Below are positions 894 through 61,614 of a DNA stretch of 64,000 nucleotides, in pieces. The position numbers and the translations under genes were made by a program. Origin of the DNA: a virus. Position 1 is the stretch's first letter. Every line of letters begins with the position of its first letter. The notes under the pieces are model-generated. The model was not told the origin of the DNA, made no database searches, and saw nothing but the letters and a program-made list of their open reading frames with translations. The stretch is taken from IMG/VR virus record IMGVR_UViG_3300045988_020586; one strand, given 5' to 3'.

Positions 894-902
894 TAAAATA
901 TT

Positions 903-15900: not shown

Positions 15901-17024
15901 GTTCTGAAGGTATTTCTATATTCGACGAAAACAAATTACCTAGTACATTTAAGGCGGATAAACTTTTAGATTACGCTGAACAATATGCGAAGGATCTTAC
16001 AGAGTCTTTGTCTAAAGATTAGAAGAATAGAAAATCTAAGCCAAAAGACGAATCTAAACAAGTTGTTATGTACAGATTTTCTTCAACAATAAATCCTATG
16101 AAGATAAACGGTTCGTATTACGAAGTTAACCCTAACGATAATAAGCTTAATAACAAGGTTACAAACGAAGATGGTTCTGTAGAATTTGTATCAGCTATTA
16201 ATCCTATTAATAAGATTGAGCAGGACATAAAAAGTTCTGGAGTTGATATAAATATCAACAATGCTAATTTACAGCAGATTGTTGAATAGATACAATCAAG
16301 ACAGAGTATCGGAATATATAGTTTTATACATTTCAATGGAGATATATCCAAGTTTGAACCATCTAAAAAGCAGGTAAGCGATTATATCACATAGAAAGAA
16401 AGTGAATATGAAGACACCCTCGCTTCAGATTTAACTAAAGCTCAACGCAGATAGTTTATAGCAGAATACTCTAAGAAACTCAAAGATGAAGCTCCAGGCG
16501 TATTGTTGCAGAAGAATGTAAACGACAAGGTTGATTCTATTGTAAAGGATTTAATTTCATCAAATGTAACAAACTTTACAATATTATCTACCGGTGATGG
16601 TGTTATAGAGCAAGCTGGAGCACATTCAGCTATGCTTAATCAGTCTAATATAACATCTACACTTGGACCTTGTAGGGTATATATTCTCGGCAAAACTATG
16701 AGTAATCCGGAGTCTTTGGAAGCTGAAAAGTAGAAATATATACTTGATGATGTTGATGTTAAAACTGATGAACAAAAAAGTACCGAAGATGATATAAATA
16801 TGTTGTAGGATGCAGCTGACAACGCTGTTACAAATATCGAAGATATTTAGAACGCACAGTCTGCAGATGATCTGTTATCATAGATAAAGGATTAGGATAA
16901 ACAAGAGTCTGCTCCTAGTGTTGATAATCCTAACGAAACTGCTGGTAGTTTAGATGATTTATTGTCCTAGATTGGTGCTTTGTCAGAAGAGTCTAAAGAA
17001 ACAAATGATAATAAAAACTGTTAA
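903..17024 (+). CDS. Giant (5,373-codon) virion protein with a crAss-type two-barrel RNA polymerase domain; TAG read as sense
   Basis: ATG 903 to TAA 17022-17024. All 17 track ORFs from 1035 to 16503 lie in this one frame. Every codon read by eye: TAG is the only stop triplet in frame (25 in the first ~1000 codons). DFDVD at 13287-13301, flanked by ..IPTQGMSSMFAMTVADVLP.. and ..SAMVNAHVDVAKDPYIF.. Confidence 0.8.
13287..13301 (+). other. DFDVD (DFDxD) putative catalytic metal-binding motif of the virion RNA polymerase domain
   Basis: Codons gac ttc gat gtc gat, about residue 4129 of the giant ORF. DFDxD is the signature reported for crAss-like virion RNAPs such as Cellulophaga phage phi14:2 gp66. 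Confidence 0.6.
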
Positions 17025-27547: not shown

Positions 27548-27670
27548 AACTTATAAGTTAGTGGGCGTCCACCGTCTCGAACCGTGACTATATATTTCTA
27601 TATTAGAGCTTCCCTTCCTCACGCCCTTATAAAAATGAGCAGTTTAATGACATGCTCAGGTCGCGACGGA

Positions 27671-28835: not shown

Positions 28836-29576
28836 TTACTTAAATATTCTATCCCAATGTGTTGTAAGTGTCCCATCTTCATTACCTTCTGCAATAACAA
28901 TATCCTTTCCAGCTATGTGTCTTGCACGAGCTTCCATAATGGTATCAGATGTACCACCTTTAAAGGATATATGTGTTTCATTTCCTTTGCGATATACATA
29001 ACCAACCGCATCAGCTAATCCACACACAATTTTACTCAGTTTACCAACCAAGTCTAGTTCTTTTGCAGAAACTTCAACACCGTCTTTTTCAGTTACGGTG
29101 TCTTTAACGTGACCTACAAGAATAAATTCGTCACACAAATCTCGGAACATATCAACTACCTTCTTTACTGCGTCTCTAAGATACTTATAACCTGCACCGT
29201 TAGGTAAAGTTGTTACGTCTGTGCCGTCCCATTTTTTACCCATTGGAGTCTGGCGATAGAGTGTACAAGCATAGCTCATACAGATATCTTCGAGTCGTGT
29301 AGCATTGTCAATAGTGATATGCTTATAGAAATTATGACCTACTTCTTTATTCTTGGCACGAATGGCACTTGCTGCTTCTCCTAAATCGTTGATCGTACGA
29401 CACTGGATGGCCATCGCATCAACGAAGACAGAGCCTCCCTCAAGGTCTATGATAAGGTTATTATCCAGCTGCGCAAGACAAGATGTCTTACCAGCCTTTG
29501 GAAGACCATAGAGTATAAGATATCTAGGGTTTTCAGAAACTGCAGGAATTTTACTAGTAGGTAATGTTAAACTCAT
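28836..29576 (-). CDS. AAA_24 / RecA-like P-loop ATPase (Sak4-like)
   Basis: Walker A LYGLPKAGKTS; Walker B-like FILVGHV. Confidence 0.65.
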   Translation of the reverse strand: MSLTLPTSKIPAVSENPRYLILYGLPKAGKTSCLAQLDNNLIIDLEGGSVFVDAMAIQCRTINDLGEAASAIRAKNKEVGHNFYKHITIDNATRLEDICMSYACTLYRQTPMGKKWDGTDVTTLPNGAGYKYLRDAVKKVVDMFRDLCDEFILVGHVKDTVTEKDGVEVSAKELDLVGKLSKIVCGLADAVGYVYRKGNETHISFKGGTSDTIMEARARHIAGKDIVIAEGNEDGTLTTHWDRIFK

Positions 29577-29601
29577 GATACAATGATACTAAAAGTTTTA
29601 A

Positions 29602-31572: not shown

Positions 31573-33483
31573 TTAATCATCGAAGATTGTCAACTGGCGG
31601 TTAACAAACTCACTAGCTATCTTTTTTGCTTTGCTAATGTAGTATTGGTAATCCAGGTGACGATTTTCTATTGGTGTGGCATCCATCTTATTAAGGATTC
31701 GGACTCCATGTTCTGTTATTCTTGTTTCAGAACGCTTTTCATACATTTTATCCTTGACCCTTATAAGATAGTAGCCACTATTCGATGCGTAGTATCTATT
31801 AATACGTTGAATCAGGTTTCCACCATACTCAACTTTTGATTCCTTATTTACGCTTTGTGACATTAAAAAATCACGGATATCTCTATCCTTCTTAATAAAC
31901 TTGTCTATCGGTTCATTGTTCAAAAAATAGTTTATCACAGCTTTGGAGATAACAACTGGTGTCATACTATTGTTAAGACCAATATCTGTGATAAACTTGC
32001 CTTTCTTTTCTATCAGTCTCGGATCTCCAGATTGAGAGTATCCTTTGCGAACACCAAAGTAATTGTTCACGTCGTACTGATAAAACGACTCGTAATCATC
32101 GGATTCGAATGTCAACTGGGTTAATTGCTCAACTTCCTTAATTGCATCGGCTATTGCGAAGCGGGCGGATTTGTCAGCAATGTAGACGACACCATCTGTA
32201 TTGACTTGTACAATCTTACAATTCAATTCTAGAAGCTTATCCACTAACATAAGTAGTATAAGTTGCCCATTTATACGTATCTTGTATACGTTAAGTGGAT
32301 CATATGCCCAGCTACTTTCTTGTTGCATCTTTCCGGTAAGAGCATTAAGAGCCTGTTTGAACGCCTTAGACTTTAATAACTCTCCATTACGTTTGGCAGC
32401 TAACCGCTCCTTGTATAGAGCGTTGTACACATTCCAAAAATCTTCTCCTAAGTGAACCGGAAACCAATGGTTTATAATGGCTAACGAAGGATACATAGAC
32501 GTAACGTCGGAGTGTCCTATAAATTGTTCATCTGTAGGTTTGTAGACTCTAGGTTCGTTGATGGTGTGTATACCACCTTCTCCTATAGAGTAGCAAATGT
32601 TTGAGAGAACGAACTTCTTCTCATAGTTTTCTTGTTTCTTATCAGACTTACTTGCGTTGCAAGTAGCATTCTTTACATCCAATAAGACTTCTTTCAACTT
32701 TGGATTAGAATATTGTATGAATGGGAGTATAATGTCACCTAAACGAATGTTTCCGACTTTTCGAGTACGAGTTTTTAGCTCGTCTTTTGTTGTGTTGGTA
32801 ATGTCTAAAACTGTGCGCAAGAGTATTTCCTCTCCAAATCGTACGCCACTCATTGACAGTGCATCAAACCCCCATTCTTTTTCAACTTCAAGACGTAGTT
32901 CTACATCTTCTTTTACTTTGTTAAGCAAAGCTTCAGTAGCATCTACGTCGTTCACATTATACTCTATCATAGCATCGATATTGCATTCTTCTATCTGCAT
33001 ATCAAAGTTACCTTCGTACTCTTGCACATTTGGCATATGTAAAAGTATTTCGATTTCTTTTAAGCTTTTCTGTTGCTTAGCACTATAGAGCATCAACATA
33101 AGATCAAACGAATAAAAGTAATTTGCATATTTGTATTGTTTTATCTTATCAATATTTCCTGTTTTTTCCGAACTTATTATTTCTTTACTAAGATAATACA
33201 GAGAACTACAAATTCTCGAGTATCCTAGTCGCTTCATTCTATTATAGAAACAGATAATATAGTTTATGATTATATCATCATAGTGCTTATTGTTATATCC
33301 GCACATTATATGTTCTGTTCTATTTGTATAGAAGAAGTCAACTAATTCTTTTAGTTGATTTTTTCGACAGGATATCTCGAATTTATATAGGTTATGATTC
33401 TCTGAATCTTTACAAGTACAATGAAAACAGTTTGGAAAAACTTCTATGTCATATAGAACTACTGGTCTTTCCTTTACTATCAT
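31573..33483 (-). CDS. family B DNA polymerase (636 aa)
   Basis: ExoI ..LYDIEVFPN.., motif A ..DVTSMYPS.., motif B-like ..KQALNALTGK.., motif C ..VNTDGVVY.. Start set at ATG 33483; the track ORF extends to 33582 across a tRNA gene. Confidence 0.85.
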   Translation of the reverse strand: MIVKERPVVLYDIEVFPNCFHCTCKDSENHNLYKFEISCRKNQLKELVDFFYTNRTEHIMCGYNNKHYDDIIINYIICFYNRMKRLGYSRICSSLYYLSKEIISSEKTGNIDKIKQYKYANYFYSFDLMLMLYSAKQQKSLKEIEILLHMPNVQEYEGNFDMQIEECNIDAMIEYNVNDVDATEALLNKVKEDVELRLEVEKEWGFDALSMSGVRFGEEILLRTVLDITNTTKDELKTRTRKVGNIRLGDIILPFIQYSNPKLKEVLLDVKNATCNASKSDKKQENYEKKFVLSNICYSIGEGGIHTINEPRVYKPTDEQFIGHSDVTSMYPSLAIINHWFPVHLGEDFWNVYNALYKERLAAKRNGELLKSKAFKQALNALTGKMQQESSWAYDPLNVYKIRINGQLILLMLVDKLLELNCKIVQVNTDGVVYIADKSARFAIADAIKEVEQLTQLTFESDDYESFYQYDVNNYFGVRKGYSQSGDPRLIEKKGKFITDIGLNNSMTPVVISKAVINYFLNNEPIDKFIKKDRDIRDFLMSQSVNKESKVEYGGNLIQRINRYYASNSGYYLIRVKDKMYEKRSETRITEHGVRILNKMDATPIENRHLDYQYYISKAKKIASEFVNRQLTIFDD

Positions 33484-33485
33484 AG

Positions 33486-33558
33486 TAGTTCTAACCGGAT
33501 TCGAACCGATGACCTCCGGGTTATCTACCCGGTGCTCTGGCCACTGAGCTATAGAACT
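33486..33558 (-). tRNA. tRNA with anticodon GAU (Ile) and an unusual anticodon loop UAGAUAA (A at position 33)
   Basis: Full cloverleaf folded by hand: acceptor AGTTCTA/TAGAACT, D arm GCTC-AGTGGCCA-GAGC, anticodon stem CCGGG/CCCGG, T arm ATCGG-TTCGAAT-CCGGT. The 3' end lies 2 nt from the polB ATG. Confidence 0.75.
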
Positions 33559-33767
33559 GACCCCGTCGGGTCTGCATGACATACACGATATGTGCGGACG
33601 CTGATTGATGTTTTACGTCTTTCGGTACCTTTCTCGCTGCCACATATCAGTACCACATGTTGTCCCTAGTGAGGGTTTGCACCTCGCAGTCATATCCTTT
33701 CGGAGCACACTAGGGTGACCAGTGGTGTCCTGGTCTATTCCATTAACAGTAGGGAAGTTCGTATAAT

Positions 33768-36977: not shown

Positions 36978-37571
36978 TTATGCTATCTTATCAGCTGGTT
37001 TAGAATCTGCCTTCTGACGCTCGTAGTCGGCAACGATCTTCTCGTTTGCTGCAATGGCAGACAAACACTGAGCCTTAGCCTTATTAGCCTGCTCAATAAT
37101 TGCCTCAAGGCGAGCGATCTCACCACGGTTAAGATCGTTAAGAATGCCACTCAAATCCTTAGGATCTGAGAACACAGCCTTAGAGTTCTTGTCCTTAAGA
37201 GCGTTCTGAACTGCCTCCTCTGTGGTCTCACCAAACTTGGTGCTGTTCTCACCGAGAGGGATATCAATCTGGTGCTCGGTGCCCTCATTGAGACGGCAAA
37301 CGACATCACCGATTGCATTCTGCTTGGTTGCCATAGACTCAATCGTAATATAGCCGATCGCAAAACGGCGAGGTGAACGATTGAGGACAAGGTTTACATT
37401 GGAGCCCTGCTTAGCCTGCTCCAAAACCTTATCATGATCTGGGTTGAACATACGGGTCTGAGGAATAAATACGTCCTGACCGAACATTCTGCCACCGAGC
37501 AAGCTCAGTGGGGTACGATTTGACTTAATTGTAGTTTCCACGATGTTTACATTAATTTCTGACATAATCAT
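36978..37571 (-). CDS. hypothetical protein (197 aa)
   Basis: Track ORF with ATG start (alternative ATG 37565) and higher G+C. Confidence 0.6.
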   Translation of the reverse strand: MIMSEINVNIVETTIKSNRTPLSLLGGRMFGQDVFIPQTRMFNPDHDKVLEQAKQGSNVNLVLNRSPRRFAIGYITIESMATKQNAIGDVVCRLNEGTEHQIDIPLGENSTKFGETTEEAVQNALKDKNSKAVFSDPKDLSGILNDLNRGEIARLEAIIEQANKAKAQCLSAIAANEKIVADYERQKADSKPADKIA

Positions 37572-39731
37572 ATCCTTTTTGATATCGTTATTGATTAACT
37601 AACGATATGATTTTTAAAATATGGTGTATTTTGGCTACACCTTTGCCGTTGTTTATTGAATAAAGCAACGCTGATACGAAGATACTCGGTTACTACTTTG
37701 CTTACTTAGTTTTCTAAAGAAAGTTCTACTATTGTAGACGCTTTTCATAGACTTAGCTACACTATTTCTACTACAACAATAGGGTAGTAGACTTGTAGCA
37801 GGAATTACGTACGTATGACGTAATTAACATTTACTGGATTATCCAGGCCCATCGTCTAAAGCTTTGAATGCTTTCTTTGCATAATCAAATGCTGAACTAT
37901 TTTCTGCTATTTTGTTCACGTTTTTTCTAACTTAACTATTCTAATCTTCGTTGGTGAAATTTTGCAGAGCAACTAACACTCATAGAATCTTAGAATCCTT
38001 ATAACCCACGAAAATATGTAGAATCTCGGTCGTATTTCCCTTACTATACTTACAAGATATTCCTACACGATTGTTATTAAAGCAGATGATCTCTACTGCT
38101 AACTTAAAAGCGACTGTCAGCTAGGTCTCCTTACTGCGGTACTCGGCTTATGGCATGTACCCAGCGGTTGGTTATCGGAATGTCTCAGGATCAAACCCAT
38201 CACAGACTTTACGGCTTTTTACATCTTTGCTGATGTTTGCAATTTTTCTGTACCGGTATTACTACCTCCTATTTATAGTGCACGAATATTGGGAATTCAA
38301 CCCATACATTTCATCTTGTCACCCACTTATAAACGTAATATACATGTATAGAGACAGTATACACATATAATATACACAGTCGTTTTACAACATAGAATAT
38401 AAGCTGCCCATCAATTTCCTGTATTGCTTCGAACCTTTGTGTTTACATATACTGTTGCACAGTATACTTTAGCATGGTTGGCATATCGGTTGGCACTCGA
38501 TTTCTTTACCTCAAGTCCTTACTTACAACGTAAGATACACTCTATAAAGGGACATCAATTTTTTGTTAAACATGTTACATTTTAAACTTTCTAGATTTTC
38601 ATAGTCTATATCTTTTGCATACAACATACGCATATATAATATACCAGCTTACTACTCTGTAGAGACTATATAATATTGCATATCATAATACAAATAGACT
38701 ATTGGTCTAAATTGTTTTGGATGAAAGTGGAGGTCAAATGATCCTGGCTGGATATATCTCGAATCAACTTTCTACCTATTTTGCTATTTCTTATTCTAGG
38801 ATAGCTTTCCATCAATTTTCTTTGACTGTAACGGAGTCATCGATCATAGTCTCATGAACGATTTAATTTTCATGGAAATTGGCTGTAAGTTCGGATTGCC
38901 TAACATCCTAATTGCAACTGGAATAGATTTTCACCGCGATCTTCACCCGCGTACGATACTCCCGTAGAGCTTCGATTAAGGGACTGCCCAACCCTTGTGC
39001 TTGTTTTACTTTTATATACCGCATAAACAAGAAAAGCCTGGCGGTCTACCATGAACTCAGACGTCTTACACCTCATCCCTGGCACCCCTTCAATGGAGTT
39101 GTGACGAATCGAACGTCAAGGACTATATGCCAACGTATTCACCATACGTCCCGTGAGTATTATCCTCACGATATTGCGTCTTAGATAAATTTTTCGGCCT
39201 TTATACTAGCTTTGGACACTAGAAACACTACCTACGGCTTAATAATACTTCTATATTGTTTGGGATATCCTCGGTTCTTCCAGCACCATGCACCATACCA
39301 TGTATGCAATTCTGTTCACCTACTGGGGACCAATATAGTTCATCTCGTGTAACGTTCGTGTATGCTTAGTATTATCACATACAATTCCGATACGGTTCAT
39401 TATGCCCTTCTTGGGACTTATGCGTTTTTAGATTACACAGCCTCATCCAGCTTGTCTCCAGACGGTTCTCACAAGTCCAGCTGTGTAATCTATAGGAGTT
39501 GATACAACGCTACTCCTACCTATATCAAACCGTTTCAATGTTTGATACATTTCATCCTACCTTTTGAGTGATCTCGCCCTGCAAGACAGGGTTAACATAT
39601 TCTCGGATCCAGTTTAATTTGATTGAGTTTTTCTTCTAGCTCCTTCGCGGGGGGATGTTCCAGAATAGTACGTAGACTAATGGGATCTACTATATGTACT
39701 TACCTAATTATAGCACATAGGGTTCTTATGT
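37572..39731. other. 2,160-nt ORF-free, hairpin-dense region (candidate ncRNA locus, origin or regulatory region)
   Basis: No ORF of 75 aa or more on either strand, even with TAG as sense. Many perfect inverted repeats, e.g. 37803-37825 (8 bp), 39431-39490 (11 bp) and 39577-39591. AT-rich core at 38560-38720. Confidence 0.6.
37672..37686. repeat. Family 1 motif TGATACGAAGATACT, copy D
   Basis: Exact 15-mer shared with 45143, 45314 and 45412. Lies about 100 nt upstream of the ATG of 36978-37571. The flanking stem is imperfect. Confidence 0.5.
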
Positions 39732-40133
39732 TTACTTATGTACATTAGAGGCGATTTGGATATAATCACGGAGCTCTCCCTTACGAATGGTAGAGTTGTG
39801 ATTAGTGGAGTCGACCTTTTCTCCAGGTTCCATAATATACAGAAGTGGTACATACGACGTATCTGTCTTCTTAATTATGGTGCGTTTAACAATTGCCTTT
39901 GCAGGCAACTGTTTATGATTACAAGGTACAGGCACTTTTACCTTAACGGTATCATGCACTGTATCAGGATTAGCACGATTCATCTGACCAAACAAATGGT
40001 CCATTGGTTGCGATACAGTAGATGCTGCTACTGTTTGCACTGTCGTCGGAAGGGGCACGTTCTTAAGATCTGCAATATTCATGCCGATCGCAAGAAATGC
40101 TGCACCTAGCAACGTTGTTACTAATTTTTTCAT
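39732..40133 (-). CDS. secreted or membrane-anchored hypothetical protein (133 aa)
   Basis: N-terminal signal-like MKKLVTTLLGAAFLAIGMN. Confidence 0.55.
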   Translation of the reverse strand: MKKLVTTLLGAAFLAIGMNIADLKNVPLPTTVQTVAASTVSQPMDHLFGQMNRANPDTVHDTVKVKVPVPCNHKQLPAKAIVKRTIIKKTDTSYVPLLYIMEPGEKVDSTNHNSTIRKGELRDYIQIASNVHK

Positions 40134-40234: not shown

Positions 40235-41746
40235 TTATTTTTTTACCTGAGCCTTAGCCTTACCCTTGGCTTCCTTCTTCTTGTTCTCTGCTGCCTTCTT
40301 ATCAGCTGCTTCCTTAGCAGCCTTGGCAACAGCCTCTTCCTCGGCCTTGATCTCTTCGTCGGTCTTAAATGCCAAGTCGATAATATTCTCCTTAGCATAA
40401 CCTACGAGCGGATCAGAAGGATTACGGAACAGATTAGAGATGATACCTGCATACTGAGTAGCGTTATCCAGCATAGAATCAGACTTAACCTTAGCCATCA
40501 TCTCTGGAACTACATCGCGATAGTATGCACGCTTAATAGAGATAACAGTCTTCTTAGCGAAGCTATTACCATCCAAGAAGTTCTTCTTCAGGTTCTCAAC
40601 AAACTCACCTGGAGCTGCAATAACTGCTGCAGTAGCCTTATCGGCAAATGCGATATTCTTGTTAGCTGTATCGATATGCGCCTGAACACGCTCCTTCTCA
40701 GGAAGCTTGTTCTCTTCCTCAATCATAATCTTGCCCTTAGAGCGAACCTCATCAGCACTGATAAGAACAAGACATCTTACAGCGTCTGCAATCTGATTAT
40801 CGGTATACTTACATACACCGGTGTTCTTGTCTGTAGAATGGTCAAGAAGCTCACAGAACGCAGATACAGGAGATCCTGACGTAGCGGTAACGTTGAAGAG
40901 GTGAGCGCCAATTCCATAAGTGAGAGTTCCGACACGACCCGTAAGGCTAACAACCTCACGAAACACGTCATGAAAATTCATGTTGTTGACACGCTCAAGA
41001 TTACTCTTAGCAGAAGCAAGAGCCTTCTCAGCGTTTTCCTTGTACTTCTTGTCCTTGGTGTCCTTAAGTGTCTTCTCGGCGGACTCGATCGCACGCTTAG
41101 CTTCGATAGAGCGATATGCCTTATAGAAGTTCACGCACTGCATAATGCTGTCCATAAGCTTAGAATCACGATTCATAGCCAGGAAACCAGACAACGCCTC
41201 CTTAAGCTCTTCCTCATCCTTGATCTTTGTAGGATCAAAGACCTTACCTGCTGTTGCAGCACGAGCCTGTGCGTCTTTGTCAAGATTCTTTGCAGTCTCT
41301 TCTGAAACTTGTACAGCTGCACCTGTAACCTCAACTGCTTCAGCGTCTTCGGTCGAAGGCAAGAGCTTAGCCTCGTCAAAGTTTACACCAATCTCTTTAA
41401 GAGCTTCCTTAAGCTCTGGGAGCGCAGACTTGCGAATTACTAACGCAAAGTCACTAGAACCATACTTAACCTCATTGCACATGCATACAGCAATGCCAAG
41501 AGCATTAATATGATTGATCTTGTCGATGGCTCCCTGCGGGATACCAGTATGCTCTGCAGCGTTCTCATCCAAGAAGAAACGATCATGAGCCATCTTCAAC
41601 AAGTCTACCTGATGGTTACGGTCCATGCTTGACCCACCTGTTGTTGTGAGCATAGCTGCAGCCTCAACAGCTGCATTTACACCGTTATCACCATTGTTGT
41701 TATTCTGGGCAACCTTAACGTTACCCTTGTTCTTTTTATTAGCCAT
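40235..41746 (-). CDS. hypothetical protein (503 aa) with Lys-rich C-terminal tail
   Basis: Longest leftward ORF. Higher G+C (26/60 at 41281-41340 versus 20/60 at 48421-48480). Tail ..AAKEAADKKAAENKKKEAKGKAKAQVKK. ATTATCAAA leader. Confidence 0.7.
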   Translation of the reverse strand: MANKKNKGNVKVAQNNNNGDNGVNAAVEAAAMLTTTGGSSMDRNHQVDLLKMAHDRFFLDENAAEHTGIPQGAIDKINHINALGIAVCMCNEVKYGSSDFALVIRKSALPELKEALKEIGVNFDEAKLLPSTEDAEAVEVTGAAVQVSEETAKNLDKDAQARAATAGKVFDPTKIKDEEELKEALSGFLAMNRDSKLMDSIMQCVNFYKAYRSIEAKRAIESAEKTLKDTKDKKYKENAEKALASAKSNLERVNNMNFHDVFREVVSLTGRVGTLTYGIGAHLFNVTATSGSPVSAFCELLDHSTDKNTGVCKYTDNQIADAVRCLVLISADEVRSKGKIMIEEENKLPEKERVQAHIDTANKNIAFADKATAAVIAAPGEFVENLKKNFLDGNSFAKKTVISIKRAYYRDVVPEMMAKVKSDSMLDNATQYAGIISNLFRNPSDPLVGYAKENIIDLAFKTDEEIKAEEEAVAKAAKEAADKKAAENKKKEAKGKAKAQVKK

Positions 41747-41814
41747 TTTGATAATGTTTTAAAAATGTTAAATACTAAAATTAATTAATAAAATCCTGGG
41801 CAACTAACTTAGAT

Positions 41815-42214: not shown

Positions 42215-42772
42215 TTAAACTTTTAAGTTATTTTTAATTTTCCTACGAGTGCGGCTTAATGCTGCTTTTATAGTGCCTGTAGGAGTTTTTAGCACTTTGC
42301 TAATTTCGTCAACTGATAGATCCTCTACGTAAAACAAATTAAAAATCTTTTGTGTCTTTTTAGGGAGCTTTTCAAACTCCTTTAAAAGAAATTCGTGTTC
42401 AAGAAGATTGACAAGATCTTCTTCTTCCGAAGAACTAGTTAATTCTACGGGTAGTCGGCCCATATCTTCTCCTAATTCCATAGATTTCTCCTTTATCTTT
42501 CGTAAATAATCTATAGCCGTTCTATTAGCTATAATTCTCAGCCATCCGCCAAAAGACGAATAATCTGTGAATGTCGAGAGTTTCTGGTGAACCTTAAGAA
42601 ATACAACATTTGTAAGATCTTTAGCTTCATCCATATCATTCACGTAATGAAAGAGTACGTTGTCAACGAACTCCTTATAACGGTTAAACAATTTATTAAA
42701 CGCAAGCTCATTTCCCTTCTGAGCTTCTTTTATGGTCTCAATCTCAGATTGAGTGATACGCTGATACTCCAT
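42215..42772 (-). CDS. ECF-type sigma-70 family RNA polymerase sigma factor
   Basis: Region 2-like ..VVFLKVHQKLSTFTDYSSFGGWLRIIANRTAIDYLRK.. and region 4-like ..KIFNLFYVEDLSVDEISKVLKTPTGTIKAALSRTRRKI.. Confidence 0.75.
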   Translation of the reverse strand: MEYQRITQSEIETIKEAQKGNELAFNKLFNRYKEFVDNVLFHYVNDMDEAKDLTNVVFLKVHQKLSTFTDYSSFGGWLRIIANRTAIDYLRKIKEKSMELGEDMGRLPVELTSSSEEEDLVNLLEHEFLLKEFEKLPKKTQKIFNLFYVEDLSVDEISKVLKTPTGTIKAALSRTRRKIKNNLKV

Positions 42773-42801
42773 ATTGTGGAGTAGGGGAGATCTCTCTCAC
42801 C

Positions 42802-43218
42802 CTACCCCTGATAAAACGGAAGGTCATATACCATCTTTTGACGGTACAATGACCAAACGTTGTTGACGAAATTGTTGAAAAGAATCAATTTTAAATCCTT
42901 TCCGCCGGTCTTCATTTCTACTTTTTCAAGTAGTCCTGAACCAATACGCATACGAGTTGTAAGTGTTTTGAACTTCATAGAATTGGTTAGGACTATTGTT
43001 TTCATAATCCAATCACCAACTCTACGCAAATGTTCATTACAACAGTATTCGTATATACAATCTTCGTCTAGGCTATCTCCAGCACAGAATACGTGCGCTC
43101 CATCAGTGAAGCCCTTTTTAAGGCGATTGTGGAACCAGTTAATCACATCTTCTACGTTGTCACTTTCATAGCCTAACAGACTAGCTCTGTAAATTAGCAT
43201 TTTAGGGAAATACTCCAT
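42802..43218 (-). CDS. hypothetical protein (138 aa)
   Basis: Track ORF with ATG start; ends at TAG. Confidence 0.55.
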   Translation of the reverse strand: MEYFPKMLIYRASLLGYESDNVEDVINWFHNRLKKGFTDGAHVFCAGDSLDEDCIYEYCCNEHLRRVGDWIMKTIVLTNSMKFKTLTTRMRIGSGLLEKVEMKTGGKDLKLILFNNFVNNVWSLYRQKMVYDLPFYQG

Positions 43219-43230
43219 TTTCTATTTTGT

Positions 43231-43752
43231 TTAATTAAATGTTTTCTTAATAAACTTAGAAAAATCTTCAAGATATTCATCTAGAAATCCAGCTTTCTCT
43301 GACAAGAAATTATCAAATAGTGCCATATTACCGCATTTACATGATATTTTGTAATAGTTATCTAGGAATTTATAGTTATTTTGAAACCATACAACCCAAC
43401 TATTAACCCATATCCAAAATGCGTATTCTCCAGCATTGAAAGTCTTGTTAATACATTCTAAGTTTATAGAGTCTGCAAAATTAAAATTTTGAGACCCCTC
43501 GTGGATTCCAAGAGCTTTTCTTATTGACGCATTCTTTTCATCTGTTCTAGGTCTCCCTTTTCCAGTGTTGTAGATTGCTATATTCTCTTGATATACACGG
43601 TCTATCCATCGCGTTTTAACGGCATACTTAATTCTTTCGTGTGGCTTCTTACCAATATTTGATAATCTACCAAACTCTGTACACCATTTAAACGCGAGGT
43701 CGACAACATAAGGACACCTGTCCTTTATCATCGCTTTGTATCCCTTTGTCAT
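43231..43752 (-). CDS. hypothetical protein (173 aa)
   Basis: Track ORF with ATG start. Confidence 0.55.
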   Translation of the reverse strand: MTKGYKAMIKDRCPYVVDLAFKWCTEFGRLSNIGKKPHERIKYAVKTRWIDRVYQENIAIYNTGKGRPRTDEKNASIRKALGIHEGSQNFNFADSINLECINKTFNAGEYAFWIWVNSWVVWFQNNYKFLDNYYKISCKCGNMALFDNFLSEKAGFLDEYLEDFSKFIKKTFN

Positions 43753-43761
43753 AACTAATAG

Positions 43762-43820
43762 GAAGAAGCTGGGGAATCGAACCCCAGACCCAAACCAAAA
43801 GGCGACGGTACCAACTTCTT
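43762..43820 (-). ncRNA. 59-nt tRNA-like minihelix: acceptor plus T-arm, no D or anticodon arms
   Basis: T-arm TGGGG-TTCGATT-CCCCA. Acceptor AAGAAGT/GCTTCTT has 7 bp including one G-U. Only 27 nt lie between the acceptor 5' strand and the T stem. Confidence 0.35.
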
Positions 43821-43968
43821 TCTTCTCTCCACTTAGGTAGGAAGCACCTAGACTAAACTTACGCTACGCAAGTATAGTCTACAATGTTATTTACATTGCC
43901 GTTTAATTTATAGTATAGTGCTTAATGTATTTATCTCCTCTGTCTGTCAAAACCAAACACGCCCGTGT

Positions 43969-43989
43969 AGGCAGTTTTACAACATGCCT
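43969..43989. repeat. Family 3 hairpin, copy 1 (loop GTTTTACAACA)
   Basis: AGGCA / GTTTTACAACA / TGCCT followed by AGGTTG. Confidence 0.55.
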
Positions 43990-44048
43990 AGGTTGCCACG
44001 TTTTCGCGAACAAAAATGTGATCTGTCATACATAGACACAAACAGAAT

Positions 44049-44069
44049 AGACAGTTTTACAACATGTCT
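44049..44069. repeat. Family 3 hairpin, copy 2 (loop GTTTTACAACA)
   Basis: AGACA / GTTTTACAACA / TGTCT followed by GGGTTG. A compensatory G-to-A and C-to-T change relative to copy 1 keeps the stem paired. Confidence 0.55.
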
Positions 44070-44180
44070 GGGTTGTTGTTCAGATTGAACACTCTCTGCG
44101 GGAGGGTGTGGACGTGAGGGGAGTCGACAAAATCTTCAAGTTCATTGCAACTATTCCACTCTGCTCCACGTTATATTTAT

Positions 44181-44798
44181 ATGGAACAGATAAAGAAATA
44201 TATGCAAAACAGAAAGTTAATAACTTTCGTTTGTGATTGTTGTGGAAAAGAAGCTCAAAAACCTCTTTCCGAATACAACAGAAACAAGAAACTTGGTAGG
44301 AAGAATTTTTGTAGTAGAAGTTGTGCAATTCGTTATGCTAATAAAAATAAATTACATACATTTACAGATAAATGTAGAGAACATCTTTTAAGTATTTGCA
44401 ACAATCAAATAGACGAATATACCGATTTTAGATATATCCTTAGAAGTGTCTATAAAAGATTTAAAGAAGTAGATATAGATTTAGAGTATCTAAAACAACT
44501 TTGGGAGACACAAAAAGGAATTTGCCCTTATACTGGTATAAAATTAAAGCTTCCAACATATAAAAGCCATAACTTCTATTTTGATTGTGCATCTTTAGAC
44601 AGAATAGATTCTTCTAAAGGCTACGTTAAAGGAAATGTTCAATTCATATCATTACCTATAAATTATATGAAATCTACTAAATCAGATATTGAAATCAGAC
44701 AATTTCTTAAACAAATTTCTTCTTACACTTCACATTTCTGCGAAGATGAGACTATCTCTTCACCTAAAGAGGTGTTGGGCGCTCGAGCTGGTAATTAA
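44181..44798 (+). CDS. HNH-family endonuclease, free-standing and opposite in orientation to its neighbours
   Basis: ..CASLDRIDSSKGYVKGNVQFISLPIN.. and N-terminal Cys pairs CDCCGKE..CSRSC. Start set at ATG 44181. Confidence 0.7.
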   Translation: MEQIKKYMQNRKLITFVCDCCGKEAQKPLSEYNRNKKLGRKNFCSRSCAIRYANKNKLHTFTDKCREHLLSICNNQIDEYTDFRYILRSVYKRFKEVDIDLEYLKQLWETQKGICPYTGIKLKLPTYKSHNFYFDCASLDRIDSSKGYVKGNVQFISLPINYMKSTKSDIEIRQFLKQISSYTSHFCEDETISSPKEVLGARAGN

Positions 44799-45137
44799 GA
44801 AGACTATACTTCTCCAGTAGTCGTTGCACTTTCTTGTGGTGTACCACAAGCTTAGCTCAGGGTTAGCATGAACAATACTAGCTTTGAGCTATTATTGTTT
44901 TTAGCCTTCCTTGAATTCACCCAATATGGGCTCGGTAAGAACCCCTGTCCAAACAGATTATTTCATACACACTGTACATTTGTTTTGTAAATGTCCTGAT
45001 GATCAGTCAGAACATTTGATTTAAACCACTTTAGGTGCGTTCTAAGGCATTTTTGCGACACTTGTGGTTAATTACTCCACTCGGTGACATACTCTGCCTC
45101 AGAATGCATTAGAACATGGTTGAAAATATATAGGAAT

Positions 45138-45163
45138 CCTCATGATACGAAGATACTTAGAGG
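45138..45163. repeat. Family 1 hairpin, copy A
   Basis: CCTC / ATGATACGAAGATACTTA / GAGG. Confidence 0.5.
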
Positions 45164-45304
45164 GCTATATTCAGCATTTTTGATACATTTTGCAGGGTTC
45201 GATTAACTTTCTCAGAGCAACCAAATCTCCCCGATACAAAGATACGCACAAAACATATTGTTTGATCTACTGTCCCAATTTATTGTGTGGGTTCACATCT
45301 CTTC

Positions 45305-45337
45305 TTCTCATCGTGATACGAAGATACTTGATGAGAA
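45305..45337. repeat. Family 1 hairpin, copy B
   Basis: TTCTCATC / GTGATACGAAGATACTT / GATGAGAA (8-bp stem). Confidence 0.6.
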
Positions 45338-45406
45338 TGTTAATTCATTCTGAGATTCCTTCACTGTCTCGTCCCTCGGGACCTCCTGTAGTACTTGAGA
45401 ATCTGT

Positions 45407-45431
45407 GTACGTGATACGAAGATACTTGTAC
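45407..45431. repeat. Family 1 hairpin, copy C
   Basis: GTAC / GTGATACGAAGATACTT / GTAC. Lies 12 nt beyond the stop of 45443-45937. Confidence 0.55.
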
Positions 45432-45442
45432 TAGAAGAAGAA

Positions 45443-45937
45443 TTAGAAGCGATCGAACTGATAGTTGGCATAATACCAGCTGTTTGGATACTTGTCGCGC
45501 AACTCACGGTCGTGCTTCTCGTACTCCTGGTTCAGTTCGGTCATCTGCTTACGCTGATCCTCATCGATCTTCTGAGACAGGTCACGGAACATATTTGGCG
45601 TGATCTTCTGGTCGTCAGGAACGACGGTACCATTCTCGTCCTTGCCCAGAAGACGGGCCAACAGCTCTGTACGCTTCTTCAGAATATCGAGGGTGATCTT
45701 TGCCTTCGCACGGTCCTTACGGACATTGAGAAGCTCCTTAATACGGAGATAGTCAGCACACTTAACGATCTCTTTGACCTGGGAGATCTTACGCTTCTCC
45801 TCATCCTGGCGGATCTCTTCTGCCGCCTTGTCTGCAATGTCGGTTACGAGGTTACCCTTAACCAACTTTTCAACAACGTTGTCTACTGACGCATTCTGCT
45901 GCTCTTTAGCAGCACCTTTTGTTTCTGCTTTTGCCAT
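45443..45937 (-). CDS. charged coiled-coil-like hypothetical protein (164 aa)
   Basis: Track ORF with higher G+C and an ATTATCAAA leader. Confidence 0.65.
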   Translation of the reverse strand: MAKAETKGAAKEQQNASVDNVVEKLVKGNLVTDIADKAAEEIRQDEEKRKISQVKEIVKCADYLRIKELLNVRKDRAKAKITLDILKKRTELLARLLGKDENGTVVPDDQKITPNMFRDLSQKIDEDQRKQMTELNQEYEKHDRELRDKYPNSWYYANYQFDRF

Positions 45938-45970
45938 TTTGATAATGATTTAAAATGTTTGTAAATAAAA

Positions 45971-46204
45971 TTAATTAACACATGTTACTTCGCCCACACT
46001 CCATGATGGATTCTTAACCAATACTGCACCGTCGCTATTAACGGTGATATCACATGGAGCCTTGTGGGCGTAGTTAGCCAAATGAATGAGTGCGAATCTA
46101 GCTTTTTGAGCTTGACTCTCATCAGGGTATTTGGATTCGAATGCCAATGTCTTGACAATCTTACCCTTTACCTTCTTAGTCGTATACACTGGAATCTTCC
46201 ACAT
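45971..46204 (-). CDS. hypothetical protein (77 aa)
   Basis: Track ORF with ATG start. Confidence 0.5.
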   Translation of the reverse strand: MWKIPVYTTKKVKGKIVKTLAFESKYPDESQAQKARFALIHLANYAHKAPCDITVNSDGAVLVKNPSWSVGEVTCVN

Positions 46205-46316
46205 AATCGAGAGGATTTAATTTGTTCTGAAACTTGTCACGCTTATAAGCTTTTGCTTTAGCTTCTGCATGACGTTGACGATACACTTTCTTTGTATTAC
46301 GTTGTGTTCTACACAT
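46176..46316 (-). CDS. possible small basic protein (46 aa)
   Basis: ATG 46316 lies 2 nt after the upstream stop. MCRTQRNTKKVYRQRHAEAKAKAYKRDKF.. Overlaps the next gene by 29 nt. Below the track cutoff. Confidence 0.3.
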   Translation of the reverse strand: MCRTQRNTKKVYRQRHAEAKAKAYKRDKFQNKLNPLDYVEDSSVYD

Positions 46317-46318
46317 AG

Positions 46319-46738
46319 TTACATATTATCTTGAACCATTTTGAATACACAAATAACATCGGTAGAAATACCATAAGAATCACGCATTCTCTTACTTACA
46401 CCACAAGATATAATCTTGATAGCGCTTGTGAGAGACTCGTTGTTAGGCTCGTCATTTACAGCCTCGGACAATGCAAGCAACAACTTCATTTTTGAGTTGA
46501 AGAACTTGCCAAACTTCTCTTTTGCGTAGATGCACGCAGACTCTGCGACAGACAATTCTGTAGCACTCTTGTTTTCTGCGTGGCGGATAACAATGGAACT
46601 GACTTCTCTTTCATCCATTGTAGATACATGCACATCCGTAACATCTGATTTAATAACCTTTAATTGTGAGGCTATCAACGCAACTTCAGATGGGCCCAAA
46701 TCTGAACCTTTGTAAGAGATAACGATGTACTGCTTCAT
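46319..46738 (-). CDS. hypothetical protein (139 aa)
   Basis: Track ORF with ATG start. Confidence 0.55.
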   Translation of the reverse strand: MKQYIVISYKGSDLGPSEVALIASQLKVIKSDVTDVHVSTMDEREVSSIVIRHAENKSATELSVAESACIYAKEKFGKFFNSKMKLLLALSEAVNDEPNNESLTSAIKIISCGVSKRMRDSYGISTDVICVFKMVQDNM

Positions 46739-46740
46739 AG

Positions 46741-47232
46741 CTAATCCTCCTTTGGTATTATGTTAGTACTGGAGGACTGCACAATCTGCACATGCTTACC
46801 ATCAATAATGGTATCAATTGTTTCCGTGTTAGGAATGTCTGGCGGAGTCAAGATATTGTATTGGTCTGATTTATCGGGCAAGTTCATATACACATGCTTG
46901 TTAACCTCGAACTCATGGGATATACTTCCCTTAGTTATTGGTTCCCCAGATTTCTCTAGGACCGATACAACGTCACGCATAACCTTTTCAGGTATGCTGA
47001 AGAATACAGAATCCTGATGTCTCCACTGACCTTCCGTCTTCTGATATGTCAATGCATCAGAATAGTCGGCGAATGTAGGATTGTCAATTTCCTGCATCAT
47101 CTTTGATACCATGAGCGAATCATCGTGTCTGATTTCGCTCTTTGTCTGCTTCACATAGTCACATGATGACACTGCGAAAGCTACAATAAGCACGATTAAG
47201 CACATGCTAAGCTTTTCAAATAATCTCTTCAT
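46741..47232 (-). CDS. putative lipoprotein (163 aa)
   Basis: Signal plus lipobox-like ..LIVLIVAFAVSSCDY.. ATTATCAAA leader. Ends at TAG. Confidence 0.55.
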   Translation of the reverse strand: MKRLFEKLSMCLIVLIVAFAVSSCDYVKQTKSEIRHDDSLMVSKMMQEIDNPTFADYSDALTYQKTEGQWRHQDSVFFSIPEKVMRDVVSVLEKSGEPITKGSISHEFEVNKHVYMNLPDKSDQYNILTPPDIPNTETIDTIIDGKHVQIVQSSSTNIIPKED

Positions 47233-47303
47233 TTTGATAATTTATTAGAGATTTAACAAATGTTAACTATCCGGGTTTTAAAGATTCACGGAATCATCTA
47301 TTG

Positions 47304-51460: not shown

Positions 51461-51492
51461 TAATACAACTATCTTCACAGACCATTGTATTA
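51461..51492. repeat. Family 2 hairpin, copy 2
   Basis: TAATACAA / CTATCTTCACAGACCA / TTGTATTA. Confidence 0.65.
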
Positions 51493-51609
51493 TGAGGTCT
51501 ATTCGCGCTTTGAGTAATGAATCAGACTACACCATGATGCAACATGTGTAGTTTCGTCTAGGTCTCATCAGTGATGATTTTAGACTCTCCCTAGCTGAGT
51601 TTAAATAAA

Positions 51610-51641
51610 ACATACCACTATCTTCACAGACCATGGTATGT
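51610..51641. repeat. Family 2 hairpin, copy 3
   Basis: ACATACCA / CTATCTTCACAGACCA / TGGTATGT. Confidence 0.65.
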
Positions 51642-60685: not shown

Positions 60686-61614
60686 AGAATATTGATACGT
60701 TATTGAGTATCAATGCAACCAACTCTATTCGCATATCGTTATGATGATATAACTAAACACAAAATATCATGATAACAAAAATTTGCAAACAATGTGGTAA
60801 GGAATTTGATGTACCAGAATACAGAAAGGATGCTAAATACTGCTGTGACGAATGTAAACACAAAGCACTGCATGGAGATTTAAATTGTGAGTGTGAGGTT
60901 TGTGGCAAGAAATTCCACTTAAAACCATACGCTCTTAAAAAGAGTAAACATCATACATGTAGCCGCGAGTGTTTAAACAAACTTAAAAGTACATTATATA
61001 AAGGTGAAGGAAATCATCAATATGGTCTAAAAGGCGATAAGAATTCATCTTTCAAAGGAAACGTAATCCTGCGTAAGAACAATGGACTAATCGAGAGAAT
61101 GATCTACAATCCTAGACACCCATACGCTGATCGTAATGGTAGGATTAAGGAACACAGATTAATAGTTGAGCAGAATTACAAAATGTTTGACGATAAATAC
61201 TTTGAAGTTATAAACGGAGAGCATTATTTAAAGAAGAATGTAGATGTACATCACATTAACTTTAATCATAACGATAATAGAATAGAAAACCTAATTCCCT
61301 TGACTAGAGCGGAACATACAAAGCTTCATAACCAAAATGAAGTTATATACAGAAATGAGAAGGGAATGATAATTGGTGTCTTAAAACAGGGTGAATTGCT
61401 GGAAAAGCCTGAAGAGGTCAATCAGCAGCCAAGCTTGGGTAGTGATACCCTTGAAGGTTCAGAGACTAACAGCCGAGTCTTACGAGACAGTAATGCTGAC
61501 ACGAGTGCCCTGCCCGGAAACGGTGAAGATATAGTCCGATCTACTGATAACAAAATAAACAGTAGAAATATAGAGATAAAGAGCTCTATAGATTAACAAC
61601 TCCTAATTTTGTTG
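60686..61614 (+). mobile_element. Group I intron (about 929 nt) in dut, carrying an HNH ORF
   Basis: It separates GVIDA from DYRGEI. Exon 1 ends in U (gcT) and the intron ends in G (ttgttG). Core-like CAGAGACTAA (61460-61469) and GAAGATATAGTCC (61525-61537), plus UACG- and GAAA-capped helices in between. Confidence 0.7.
60769..61596 (+). CDS. HNH homing endonuclease (275 aa), intron-encoded
   Basis: N-terminal Cys clusters and ..VDVHHINFNHNDNRIENLIPLTRAEHTKLHN.. Its 3' third overlaps the intron core. Confidence 0.75.
   Translation: MITKICKQCGKEFDVPEYRKDAKYCCDECKHKALHGDLNCECEVCGKKFHLKPYALKKSKHHTCSRECLNKLKSTLYKGEGNHQYGLKGDKNSSFKGNVILRKNNGLIERMIYNPRHPYADRNGRIKEHRLIVEQNYKMFDDKYFEVINGEHYLKKNVDVHHINFNHNDNRIENLIPLTRAEHTKLHNQNEVIYRNEKGMIIGVLKQGELLEKPEEVNQQPSLGSDTLEGSETNSRVLRDSNADTSALPGNGEDIVRSTDNKINSRNIEIKSSID

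Follow-up and report, generated by a model that had tools for sequence, protein, structure and literature searches.

A covarying RNA module on the tmRNA leader and at gene starts of a crAss-like phage, and its possible role as a translational operator

A short element repeats in a 64,000-nucleotide (nt) stretch of viral DNA (IMG/VR record IMGVR_UViG_3300045988_020586; the whole of this stretch is called the window here), and judged by its covariation among relatives it is a small structured RNA module rather than a hairpin loop. Four copies are clustered at positions 45,138 to 45,431, in a structured RNA that runs into a phage transfer-messenger RNA (tmRNA), and single copies lie at or near the starts of other genes. 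We propose tentatively, with somewhat less than even confidence, that the module is a translational operator on messenger RNAs (mRNAs), which is displayed four times on the tmRNA leader and read by a dedicated trans-acting factor. A first-pass annotation, made from the sequence alone, had described the clustered copies as hairpins with a conserved 17-nt loop and unrelated stems, and had suggested by analogy with phage N4 that they could be promoters for a packaged RNA polymerase (RNAP), with processing or antitermination sites as further possibilities. Its more general idea, that a conserved element held by unrelated stems reflects a selected single-stranded fold that is recognized by something, is supported by the stem covariation described below; the open loop and the promoters are not.

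Occurrence and orientation of the motif

By its closest matches the window is from a crAss-like phage (Suoliviridae, Oafivirinae) close to cr124_1; positions 44939-47000 are 86% identical (megablast) to the crAss-like phages cr7_1 and cr124_1 (Crassvirales, Suoliviridae, Oafivirinae, Burzaovirus). Open reading frames (ORFs) and GC skew outline a minus-strand gene block that extends from about 56 kb down to 22 kb and contains small early-type genes, an extracytoplasmic function (ECF) sigma factor gene and replication genes. Since the motif lies inside this block, its sense reading is the reverse complement, GUAUC-N3-GUAUC.

The exact 15-mer TGATACGAAGATACT was found where the first-pass annotation had placed it, at 37672, 45143, 45314 and 45412, and the degenerate copy at 45233 is also present, as the variant GATACAAAGATAC. 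With up to three mismatches allowed there are 13 matches to the 15-mer against 3.45 expected, a number that none of 100 shuffles reached. The core GATACNNNGATAC (GATAC-N3-GATAC) occurs seven times in the 64 kb, where 0.18 occurrences would be expected; all seven are on the plus strand as written, which puts every one of them in sense orientation with the minus-strand genes. Two of these seven, at 29577-29589 and 42755-42767, had been overlooked. Phage cr124_1 has the identical seven sites and no others, all on one strand (100 kb of its 101.5-kb genome were scanned), and a scan of IMG/VR for the 15-mer returned dozens of contigs of about 100 kb with a matching layout, in which four copies are clustered, one is about 1.5 kb off and one about 6.6 kb off. 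The motif is, then, both enriched in the window and present in relatives of the phage, about 50 of which make up the comparison set used below. A pattern built from the fold only hits six sites in the window, all of them already known and on the sense strand, and none antisense, where 0.6 would be expected on both strands together; a hairpin covariance model found no additional copies within the window.

Fold of the module across genera

In the sense direction the module can be written 5'-(outer stem)-AA-G1-N2-N3-N4-C5-N(2-3)-G9-N10-N11-N12-C13-A-N-(outer stem)-3'. Within the 13-mer G1, C5, G9 and C13 are invariant, with an A before and an A after. The base pairs are G1-C13, N3-N12 and N4-N11; the two unpaired positions, N2 and N10, carry identical bases, both U in the Burzaovirus-like clade and both A in other genera. 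The segment that had been taken for an unstructured 17-nt loop thus has a covarying mini-helix inside it. RNAalifold recovers pairs 3/12 and 4/11 unprompted. We gathered 39 distinct instances with a covariance model and aligned them by fitting to the outer stem but not to the mini-helix; in these, pair 3/12 is AU in 25, GC in 12 and GU in 2 and pair 4/11 is UA in 27, CG in 11 and UG in 1, neither being unpaired in any instance, although such counts include related sequences. The 18 distinct 13-mers found in leaders likewise contain no mismatch (AU 10, GC 7 and GU 1 at 3/12; CG 9, UA 7 and UG 2 at 4/11). Five pair combinations at 3/12 and 4/11 are spread over four module positions and several genera, so the covariation is not one inherited change.

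Homologues of a neighboring protein (about 31% identity) lead to cr273_1 (Buhlduvirus), cr130_1 (Chuhaivirus) and a Bohxovirus, in all of which gene order is kept and four elements precede the tmRNA, always on the sense strand, as GAGUC-N3-GAACC, GAGCC-N3-GAGCC or GAACC-N3-GAGUC. The combinations of halves observed are GUAUC/GUAUC, GAGCC/GAGCC, GAGUC/GAACC, GAACC/GAGUC and GACCC/GAGGC, and the direct repeats GAGUC/GAGUC and GAACC/GAACC at 3-nt spacing do not occur among the instances collected from relatives. Because other genera carry differing halves, the halves are not direct repeats but are joined by pairs 3/12 and 4/11. A reading of the two pentamers as direct repeats for the binding of a dimer was accordingly rejected, since relatives pair GAGUC with GAACC and not with itself, and so was the register that RNAfold gives for single GUAUC modules (1-12, 2-11, 3-10 and 4-9), which other genera do not keep.

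In Boorivirinae (cr50_1, L251) a 12-nt version of the module, GAGCC-UU-GAGCC, is found upstream of the tmRNA (17385, 17483 and 17562), and Dulem virus 42 (L253; a record unclassified below class) has a four-copy cluster at 13103-13357 and, at the starts of its DNA polymerase and AAA ATPase genes, further copies (23495 and 27379). Going by these matches, the module family reaches beyond Oafivirinae. In Loutivirinae and Uncouvirinae relatives the module as defined here is absent though gene order is kept, and cr60_1 also keeps the tmRNA. Every copy in one genome is of the same variant, either U/U with AU pairs or A/A, which points to a co-evolving partner that is probably phage-encoded.

The stems that flank the clustered copies are those described in the first-pass annotation, namely TTCTCATC/GATGAGAA (copy B), GTAC/GTAC (copy C) and CCTC/GAGG (copy A). 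The 8-bp stem of copy B is indeed present, but only its inner 3-4 bp are conserved as that stem, and its outer bases pair elsewhere in the consensus structure. The outer stems covary both within and between genera. In close relatives the GUAC/GUAC stem of copy C is replaced by GUGC/GCAU, AGAC/GUCU, GUGGC/GCCAU or GGGC/GCCC with pairing kept, and UUCUCAUC/GAUGAGAA of copy B by UUCCUAUC/GAUAGGAG or a bulged CCAACC/GGUGG. Each of the three inner pairs of the outer stem is represented by 3-5 pair types and is hardly ever broken in the 39 distinct instances; a hand-picked seed alignment agrees on the outer stems but is biased. Four or more flanking Watson-Crick pairs are present in half of the instances and at 20% of random positions. 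In single-sequence folding copy B has a z of -2.0, and the remaining copies with a flanking stem range from -0.07 to -1.2; these folding energies are unremarkable, and the case for structure therefore rests on covariation and not on stability.

A conserved structured leader precedes the tmRNA

The four clustered copies are located on the minus strand between the stop codon of the gene at 45443-45937 and the phage tmRNA. Module 1 (copy C, 45407-45431) contains the 13-mer GUAUCUUCGUAUC at 45413-45425, closed by GUAC/GUAC. Module 2 (copy B, 45305-45337; covariance model score 44.6 bits) has its 13-mer at 45315-45327 and a conserved inner stem CAUC/GAUG, and its outer bases can form the 8-bp stem or join adjacent helices. 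Module 3 (the degenerate copy, GUAUCUUUGUAUC, 45233-45245) is without a stem of its own and lies at a three-way junction, the helices of which are 45248-45255/45186-45193 and 45229-45232/45194-45197; leader helices 6-8, in the region of this module, are 93-100% paired, with compensatory changes. Module 4 (copy A, 45138-45163) has its 13-mer at 45144-45156, closed by CCUC/GAGG. Directly 5' of module 2, at 45334-45351 on the same strand, is a hairpin with the conserved loop GAAUUAAC (helix 3), which is 97.7% paired and has compensatory changes in five of its six pairs. Finally, a long-range helix (helix 1) on this strand is formed by UCUUCUUCU at 45433-45441, which begins 2 nt past the stop codon of 45443-45937, and its partner AGAAGAAGA at 45300-45308; there are nine Watson-Crick pairs in the window, and among relatives the helix is 92% paired with five of six pairs compensatory. 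Since modules 1 and 2 are enclosed by this covarying helix, we take the region to be transcribed whole, with both arms in the RNA.

When 15 diverse sequences are aligned, the consensus fold of the sense strand is -55.3 kcal/mol with compensatory changes in 44 of 62 pairs, whereas that of the antisense strand is -26.3 kcal/mol. Counted over the 15-sequence alignment, 95.4% of cells are paired, against 33-45% in controls in which the partner was slid, and 50 of 75 pairs are changed on both sides. Three further helices lead from the stem of module 4 to the T arm of the tmRNA. Of 48 distinct relatives, 43 have 509-553 nt between module 1 and the T arm; the exceptions are four with about 790-802 nt and one with 436 nt, in which only three modules were detected. 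On this comparative evidence the four clustered modules belong to one conserved structured RNA of about 530 nt (44941-45442, minus strand), which is made up of the four-module leader and the acceptor-piece domain of the tmRNA as far as the 5' half of the T arm. Rfam (release 15) has no match at E<=1 over 45021-45442, and over 43600-45500 it returns only a group I intron, a tmRNA T-arm fragment and a chance microRNA match. No terminator-like site was found between the gene at 45443-45937 and the module cluster.

The adjoining gene is a two-piece tmRNA split by an intron

The gene that adjoins the leader is, by its hallmarks, a two-piece (circularly permuted) tmRNA. In the window the T arm, an acceptor helix (GGGCGUG/CACGUCC) whose third pair is G-U, the tag frame and the permuted order can be read directly, and the tmRNA of cr124_1 is matched both by ARAGORN (tag GNVNNIVDYTNVA, then a stop) and by the Rfam permuted-tmRNA family RF04321 (63.3 bits). 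The rest of the window tmRNA (43760-44127, minus strand) comprises the 3' half of the T arm with the acceptor strand (CACGUCCA), an intervening segment and the coding piece, which starts GGGCGUG and encodes the tag GNVNNIVDYTCVA followed by a stop. A group I intron of about 812 nt (44128-44940, minus strand; Rfam 81 bits) interrupts the T loop of the acceptor piece after its first U and carries an HNH/EndoVII endonuclease ORF (44145-44798) on the plus strand, opposite to the tmRNA. Because this intron splits the T loop, ARAGORN misses the tmRNA of the window; that of cr124_1 is the intron-less form. The permuted and the intron forms of tmRNA genes are listed separately (PMC11915505), whereas the one in the window is both permuted and intron-split. 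The four-module leader is outside the stretch matched by RF04321 in relative L001 (3808-4043), and a comparable leader on two-piece or intron-containing tmRNA genes was not found in the literature searched. This locus also contains, at 43968-43995 and 44048-44075 between the tmRNA pieces, two copies of a hairpin-forming 28-nt repeat (TAGGCAGTTTTACAACATGCCTAGGTTG on the plus strand), of which there is one copy elsewhere, at 27636-27663; cr124_1 aligns to only one of the two copies in the tmRNA segment.

Single copies at gene starts

Away from the leader, single modules are found at three places, all on the minus strand. The first (29569-29598; 13-mer 29577-29589, closed by AAACU/AGUUU) abuts the RecA-like AAA_24 ATPase gene at 28836-29576 in such a way that the A on its 3' side also begins the AUG at 29576-29574 (GUAUC-AUG) and its 3' stem is codons 2-3 of that gene. 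The second, GUAUCAGCGUAUC at 42755-42767, forms codons 2-6 of the ECF sigma factor gene at 42215-42772; in the sigma gene of relative L248 the peptide EYQRI is changed to EYHSI and GUAUC-N3-GUAUC-A is preserved. Right upstream of this sigma-factor AUG and module there is also a strong G+C-rich hairpin (GGGGUAGGG...CCCCUACUCC; 42773-42810, minus strand). The third module (37664-37694; 13-mer 37673-37685, closed by AGUAAC/GUUGCU) lies at the 3' end of a 2.1-kb region free of coding sequence; the distance of about 100 nt that had been given from the copy at 37672 to the start codon of 36978-37571 is correct. Orthologues of this copy occupy the same place in other genera (L121 at 19731; L123 at 19243, which is GACCC-AAU-GAGGC with a 6-bp stem).

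In three other genera the module abuts the AUG of the DNA polymerase gene (GAGUC-AUG or GAACC-AUG); the polymerases in these genera begin M-x-I-R-N, and the proteins align from that methionine. In Dulem virus 42 a gap of 1 nt separates a module from the polymerase AUG that follows it, and the AAA gene has its start codon within a module loop. Start-codon hairpins of this kind were found for the modules at 29577 and 42755, for the DNA polymerase in L121, L122, L123 and L253, and for the AAA gene in L253. For a module that lies on start codons in variable phase, the simplest mechanism would be to control how translation is initiated.

Two features of this part of the genome deserve separate description. 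The DNA polymerase of the window begins MIVKERPVVLYDIEVF, and its true AUG is at 33483; the listed ORF (31573-33582) runs spuriously through an isoleucine transfer RNA gene (tRNA-Ile, 33485-33558, minus strand), which ends 1 nt before that AUG. In cr124_1 there is no tRNA beside the polymerase gene. The region free of coding sequence (37572-39731, minus strand) has stop codons in all three sense frames and is related to other genera by collinear blocks of 68-92% nucleotide identity, one compared neighbor protein being about 31% identical; the gap is also present in cr60_1, cr50_1 and cr118_1, and Rfam gave no match in it (37400-39900 scanned). It is a candidate for a giant non-coding RNA.

A possible translational operator

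In the mechanism that we propose, the module would be made within sense-strand transcripts and would dock one dedicated trans-acting factor, predicted to be, probably, a phage-encoded RNA-binding protein. On mRNAs, factor bound at the module would hide the AUG, so that the module would act as a translational operator; its targets would be the RecA-like ATPase and the ECF sigma factor here, and the DNA polymerase and an AAA ATPase in other genera. The multi-helix leader of about 300 nt, with its four copies, would load or titrate the same factor, and its fusion to the tmRNA would tie the tmRNA precursor into the same control circuit. We infer the binding of a protein to the module and its effect on translation from the fold and positions described above. 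The further step, that the leader serves a dedicated RNA-binding regulator as a sponge or as a loading platform and so links ribosome rescue to translational control, we consider doubtful. If it is true, an abundant family of gut phages would tie ribosome rescue to the translation of three proteins, namely DNA polymerase, the RecA-like ATPase and the sigma factor. Neither such a regulatory use of a tmRNA gene nor the motif strings themselves were found in the literature searched.

A number of observations weigh against this proposal. The individual module hairpins are thermodynamically weak and not unusually stable, although this would agree with a fold that its surroundings or a bound partner keep in place. 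A crude count of G-U versus A-C mismatches around all instances gives 23 versus 23 and is uninformative, so that the strand assignment rests on the consensus fold of the leader and on gene orientation. The copy at 37673 is about 100 nt from an AUG and not on it, and the start of the DNA polymerase gene in the window is preceded by a tRNA and not by a module, an arrangement that a processing role fits equally well. Nor does the proposal account for the presence of four operators on a tmRNA precursor. As for the partner, the 164-amino-acid product of the conserved neighboring gene at 45443-45937 has no Pfam or PHROG match; its homologues are found only in this phage clade, and its AlphaFold model (predicted local distance difference test score 80) is a long helical hairpin for which Foldseek against the PDB returned nothing at E<1. 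Scans of ten neighboring proteins against Pfam and ten against PHROGs (nine in both) recognized only the sigma factor, the AAA_24 ATPase and the intron-encoded HNH endonuclease.

Alternative explanations

The module could instead be a punctuation signal for RNA processing, beside which an endoribonuclease cuts, leaving near-leaderless mRNAs and trimming the tmRNA precursor. We judge this rather unlikely, though several facts suit it: the AUG of several genes begins with the conserved A that follows C13, and excision of the tRNA-Ile before the polymerase AUG at 33483 would leave a similar 5' end. There is also a precedent, in that permuted tmRNA precursors are cut into two pieces by tRNA-processing enzymes (PMC11915505). 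However, there would be little reason for a 300-nt leader meant only for cutting to maintain covarying long-range helices and a three-way junction around its modules, the phase of the module relative to the AUG varies (0 nt, 1 nt, AUG in the loop, module after the AUG), and cr124_1 lacks the tRNA beside its polymerase gene.

Somewhat less likely again is recognition of the module by a host component (the ribosome, S1 or similar), or its use as a building block for tertiary contacts; in one form of this explanation it would be a translation enhancer on mRNAs that have no Shine-Dalgarno sequence and would help the phage tmRNA engage ribosomes. Clades share the shape of the module and few bases (G1-C13, C5, G9 and the flanking As) while the helix pairs vary, and the module is found at translation starts and on an RNA that binds ribosomes, the tmRNA, all of which could be expected of a host partner. 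Against this, the copies in the Burzaovirus-like clade have switched together from A/A to U/U with fixed AU pairs, which is easier to understand with a co-evolving partner, and the Loutivirinae and Uncouvirinae keep the gene order (and cr60_1 the tmRNA as well) without the module as defined here.

We regard as improbable the idea that the virion RNAP, or the phage ECF sigma factor, uses the copies as DNA hairpin promoters and that transcription starts at the conserved A to give leaderless mRNAs. In vitro, the crAss-type virion RNAP of phi14:2 accepts only single-stranded or denatured DNA as template, and a search upstream of its early transcripts found no motif in common (bioRxiv 10.1101/2020.03.07.982082), so the idea was a reasonable one; moreover, the phage of the window does encode an ECF sigma factor, and the invariant A after the module coincides with the AUG in some genes. 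The consensus structure nevertheless favors the sense strand, which is the non-template strand, and modules 1-3 are in covarying helices whose 5' strands lie upstream and are therefore transcribed through. The copy in the sigma gene comes after its AUG, the Dulem virus AUG is inside a module, and positions on start codons are unsuited to promoters of those genes unless their mRNAs are leaderless. The copies do not head gene blocks, the half-sites are 8 nt apart, unlike -35 and -10 elements, and a 4-bp stem around 17 nt would probably be poorly suited to extrusion from duplex DNA. None of the modules has a canonical Bacteroidetes -33/-7 promoter (TTTG and TAnnTTTG at the proper spacing); TAnnTTTG occurs only in module 3, with TTTG just 4 nt upstream, the remaining modules having TTC or different bases in the loop. 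There is no enrichment of sigma-70-type sites either (11 versus 11.4 expected). In view of the fold energies of the two strands, the enclosing helix and the positions on start codons, the N4-like promoters of the first-pass annotation are poorly supported, and a tempting candidate for the promoters of crAss virion RNAPs is removed; antitermination sites are unlikely, given the same start-codon positions.

Finally, it is scarcely credible that the module is a decoy (an RNA inhibitor of clustered regularly interspaced short palindromic repeat, or CRISPR, systems, that is, an RNA anti-CRISPR) imitating part of the 47-nt Bacteroides type II-C repeat GTTGTGATTTGCTTTCAAATTAGTATCTTTGAACCATTGGAAACAGC (PMC6390457): AGTATCTTTGAACCA within this repeat resembles both module variants, but the identity covers only 10-11 nt (blastn-short E = 0.2-0.7) and is not significant, the repeat violates the module's pairing rule (A opposite C at 3/12), and copies on the start codons of essential phage genes would make no sense, so we rejected this mimicry.

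Whichever factor reads it, the translational operator that we favor would be of some consequence, as crAss-like phages are among the most abundant viruses of the human gut and their post-transcriptional gene control is almost unstudied. Three things are now defined: a compact and testable RNA module; a conserved structured RNA, about 530 nt long, of which the phage tmRNA is part; and a short list of putative target genes (DNA polymerase, RecA-like ATPase and ECF sigma factor). The module could be used directly as bait for finding its binding partner, and compensatory mutants at 3/12 and 4/11 follow from the fold.

Other features of the window

Positions 1-22500 of the plus strand are without any ORF of at least 250 codons under the standard code; when TAG is read as sense there are giant open ORFs at 897-17024 (5375 codons) and from 17015 to past 22500, and by this reading the region looks like TAG-recoded late or virion genes. 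A RAGATH-1 hammerhead ribozyme (51520-51601, minus strand; Rfam 71.9 bits) lies between two 28-nt direct repeats (51463-51490 and 51612-51639) with 93% identity to each other, and another group I intron (61316-61557, plus strand; Rfam 65.2 bits) is within the plus-strand block. An AT-rich conserved leader (…AUUAUCAAAAUG in the sense strand) stands directly 5' of the AUGs of 40235-41746, 45443-45937 and 46741-47232; its copies, at 41744-41766, 45935-45957 and 47230-47252 in plus-strand coordinates with the minus strand as sense, form a repeat family separate from the module, and may be a promoter or an element of the 5' untranslated region.

Comparison with known systems

The early promoters of N4 have a 5-7 bp stem and a 3-nt loop; they form in the DNA strand that serves as template and are located at the end of the genome, upstream of early operons. 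The likeness to them is that short repeated hairpins with conserved bases occur in a phage that packages an RNAP; unlike them, the module has an outer stem of 3-8 bp around a 17-nt segment that holds a mini-helix, and its fold is favored on the sense strand, inside a larger covarying RNA and at or in translation starts. Neither the hairpin geometry and template strand of the N4 promoters nor their position upstream of transcription units is seen here. The coat-replicase operators of MS2, PP7 and Qbeta and the RegA and gp43 operators of T4 are closer, being small irregular hairpins with unpaired bases at the AUG of a replication gene, and with gp43 the module shares DNA polymerase as one of its targets; sequence and fold differ from these, however, and here there are several targets and four copies on a non-coding RNA. 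CsrB and RsmZ likewise repeat one motif on the stem-loops of a non-coding RNA and have it also at mRNA start regions (four and three copies, respectively, in the window), but the module is G-N-NN-C...G-N-NN-C without GGA, its carrier is fused to a tmRNA, and there are only four copies on it. The nut/boxB sites of lambda are small RNA hairpins that are read by a phage protein, as is predicted for the module; they occur once per operon leader, whereas the module has four copies in a single leader and others on start codons and within an ORF. The features described above suggest an RNA-level recognition system not previously described, and by analogy the module appears to resemble most the phage translational operators combined with a CsrB-like display of repeated sites, while being a member of neither group.

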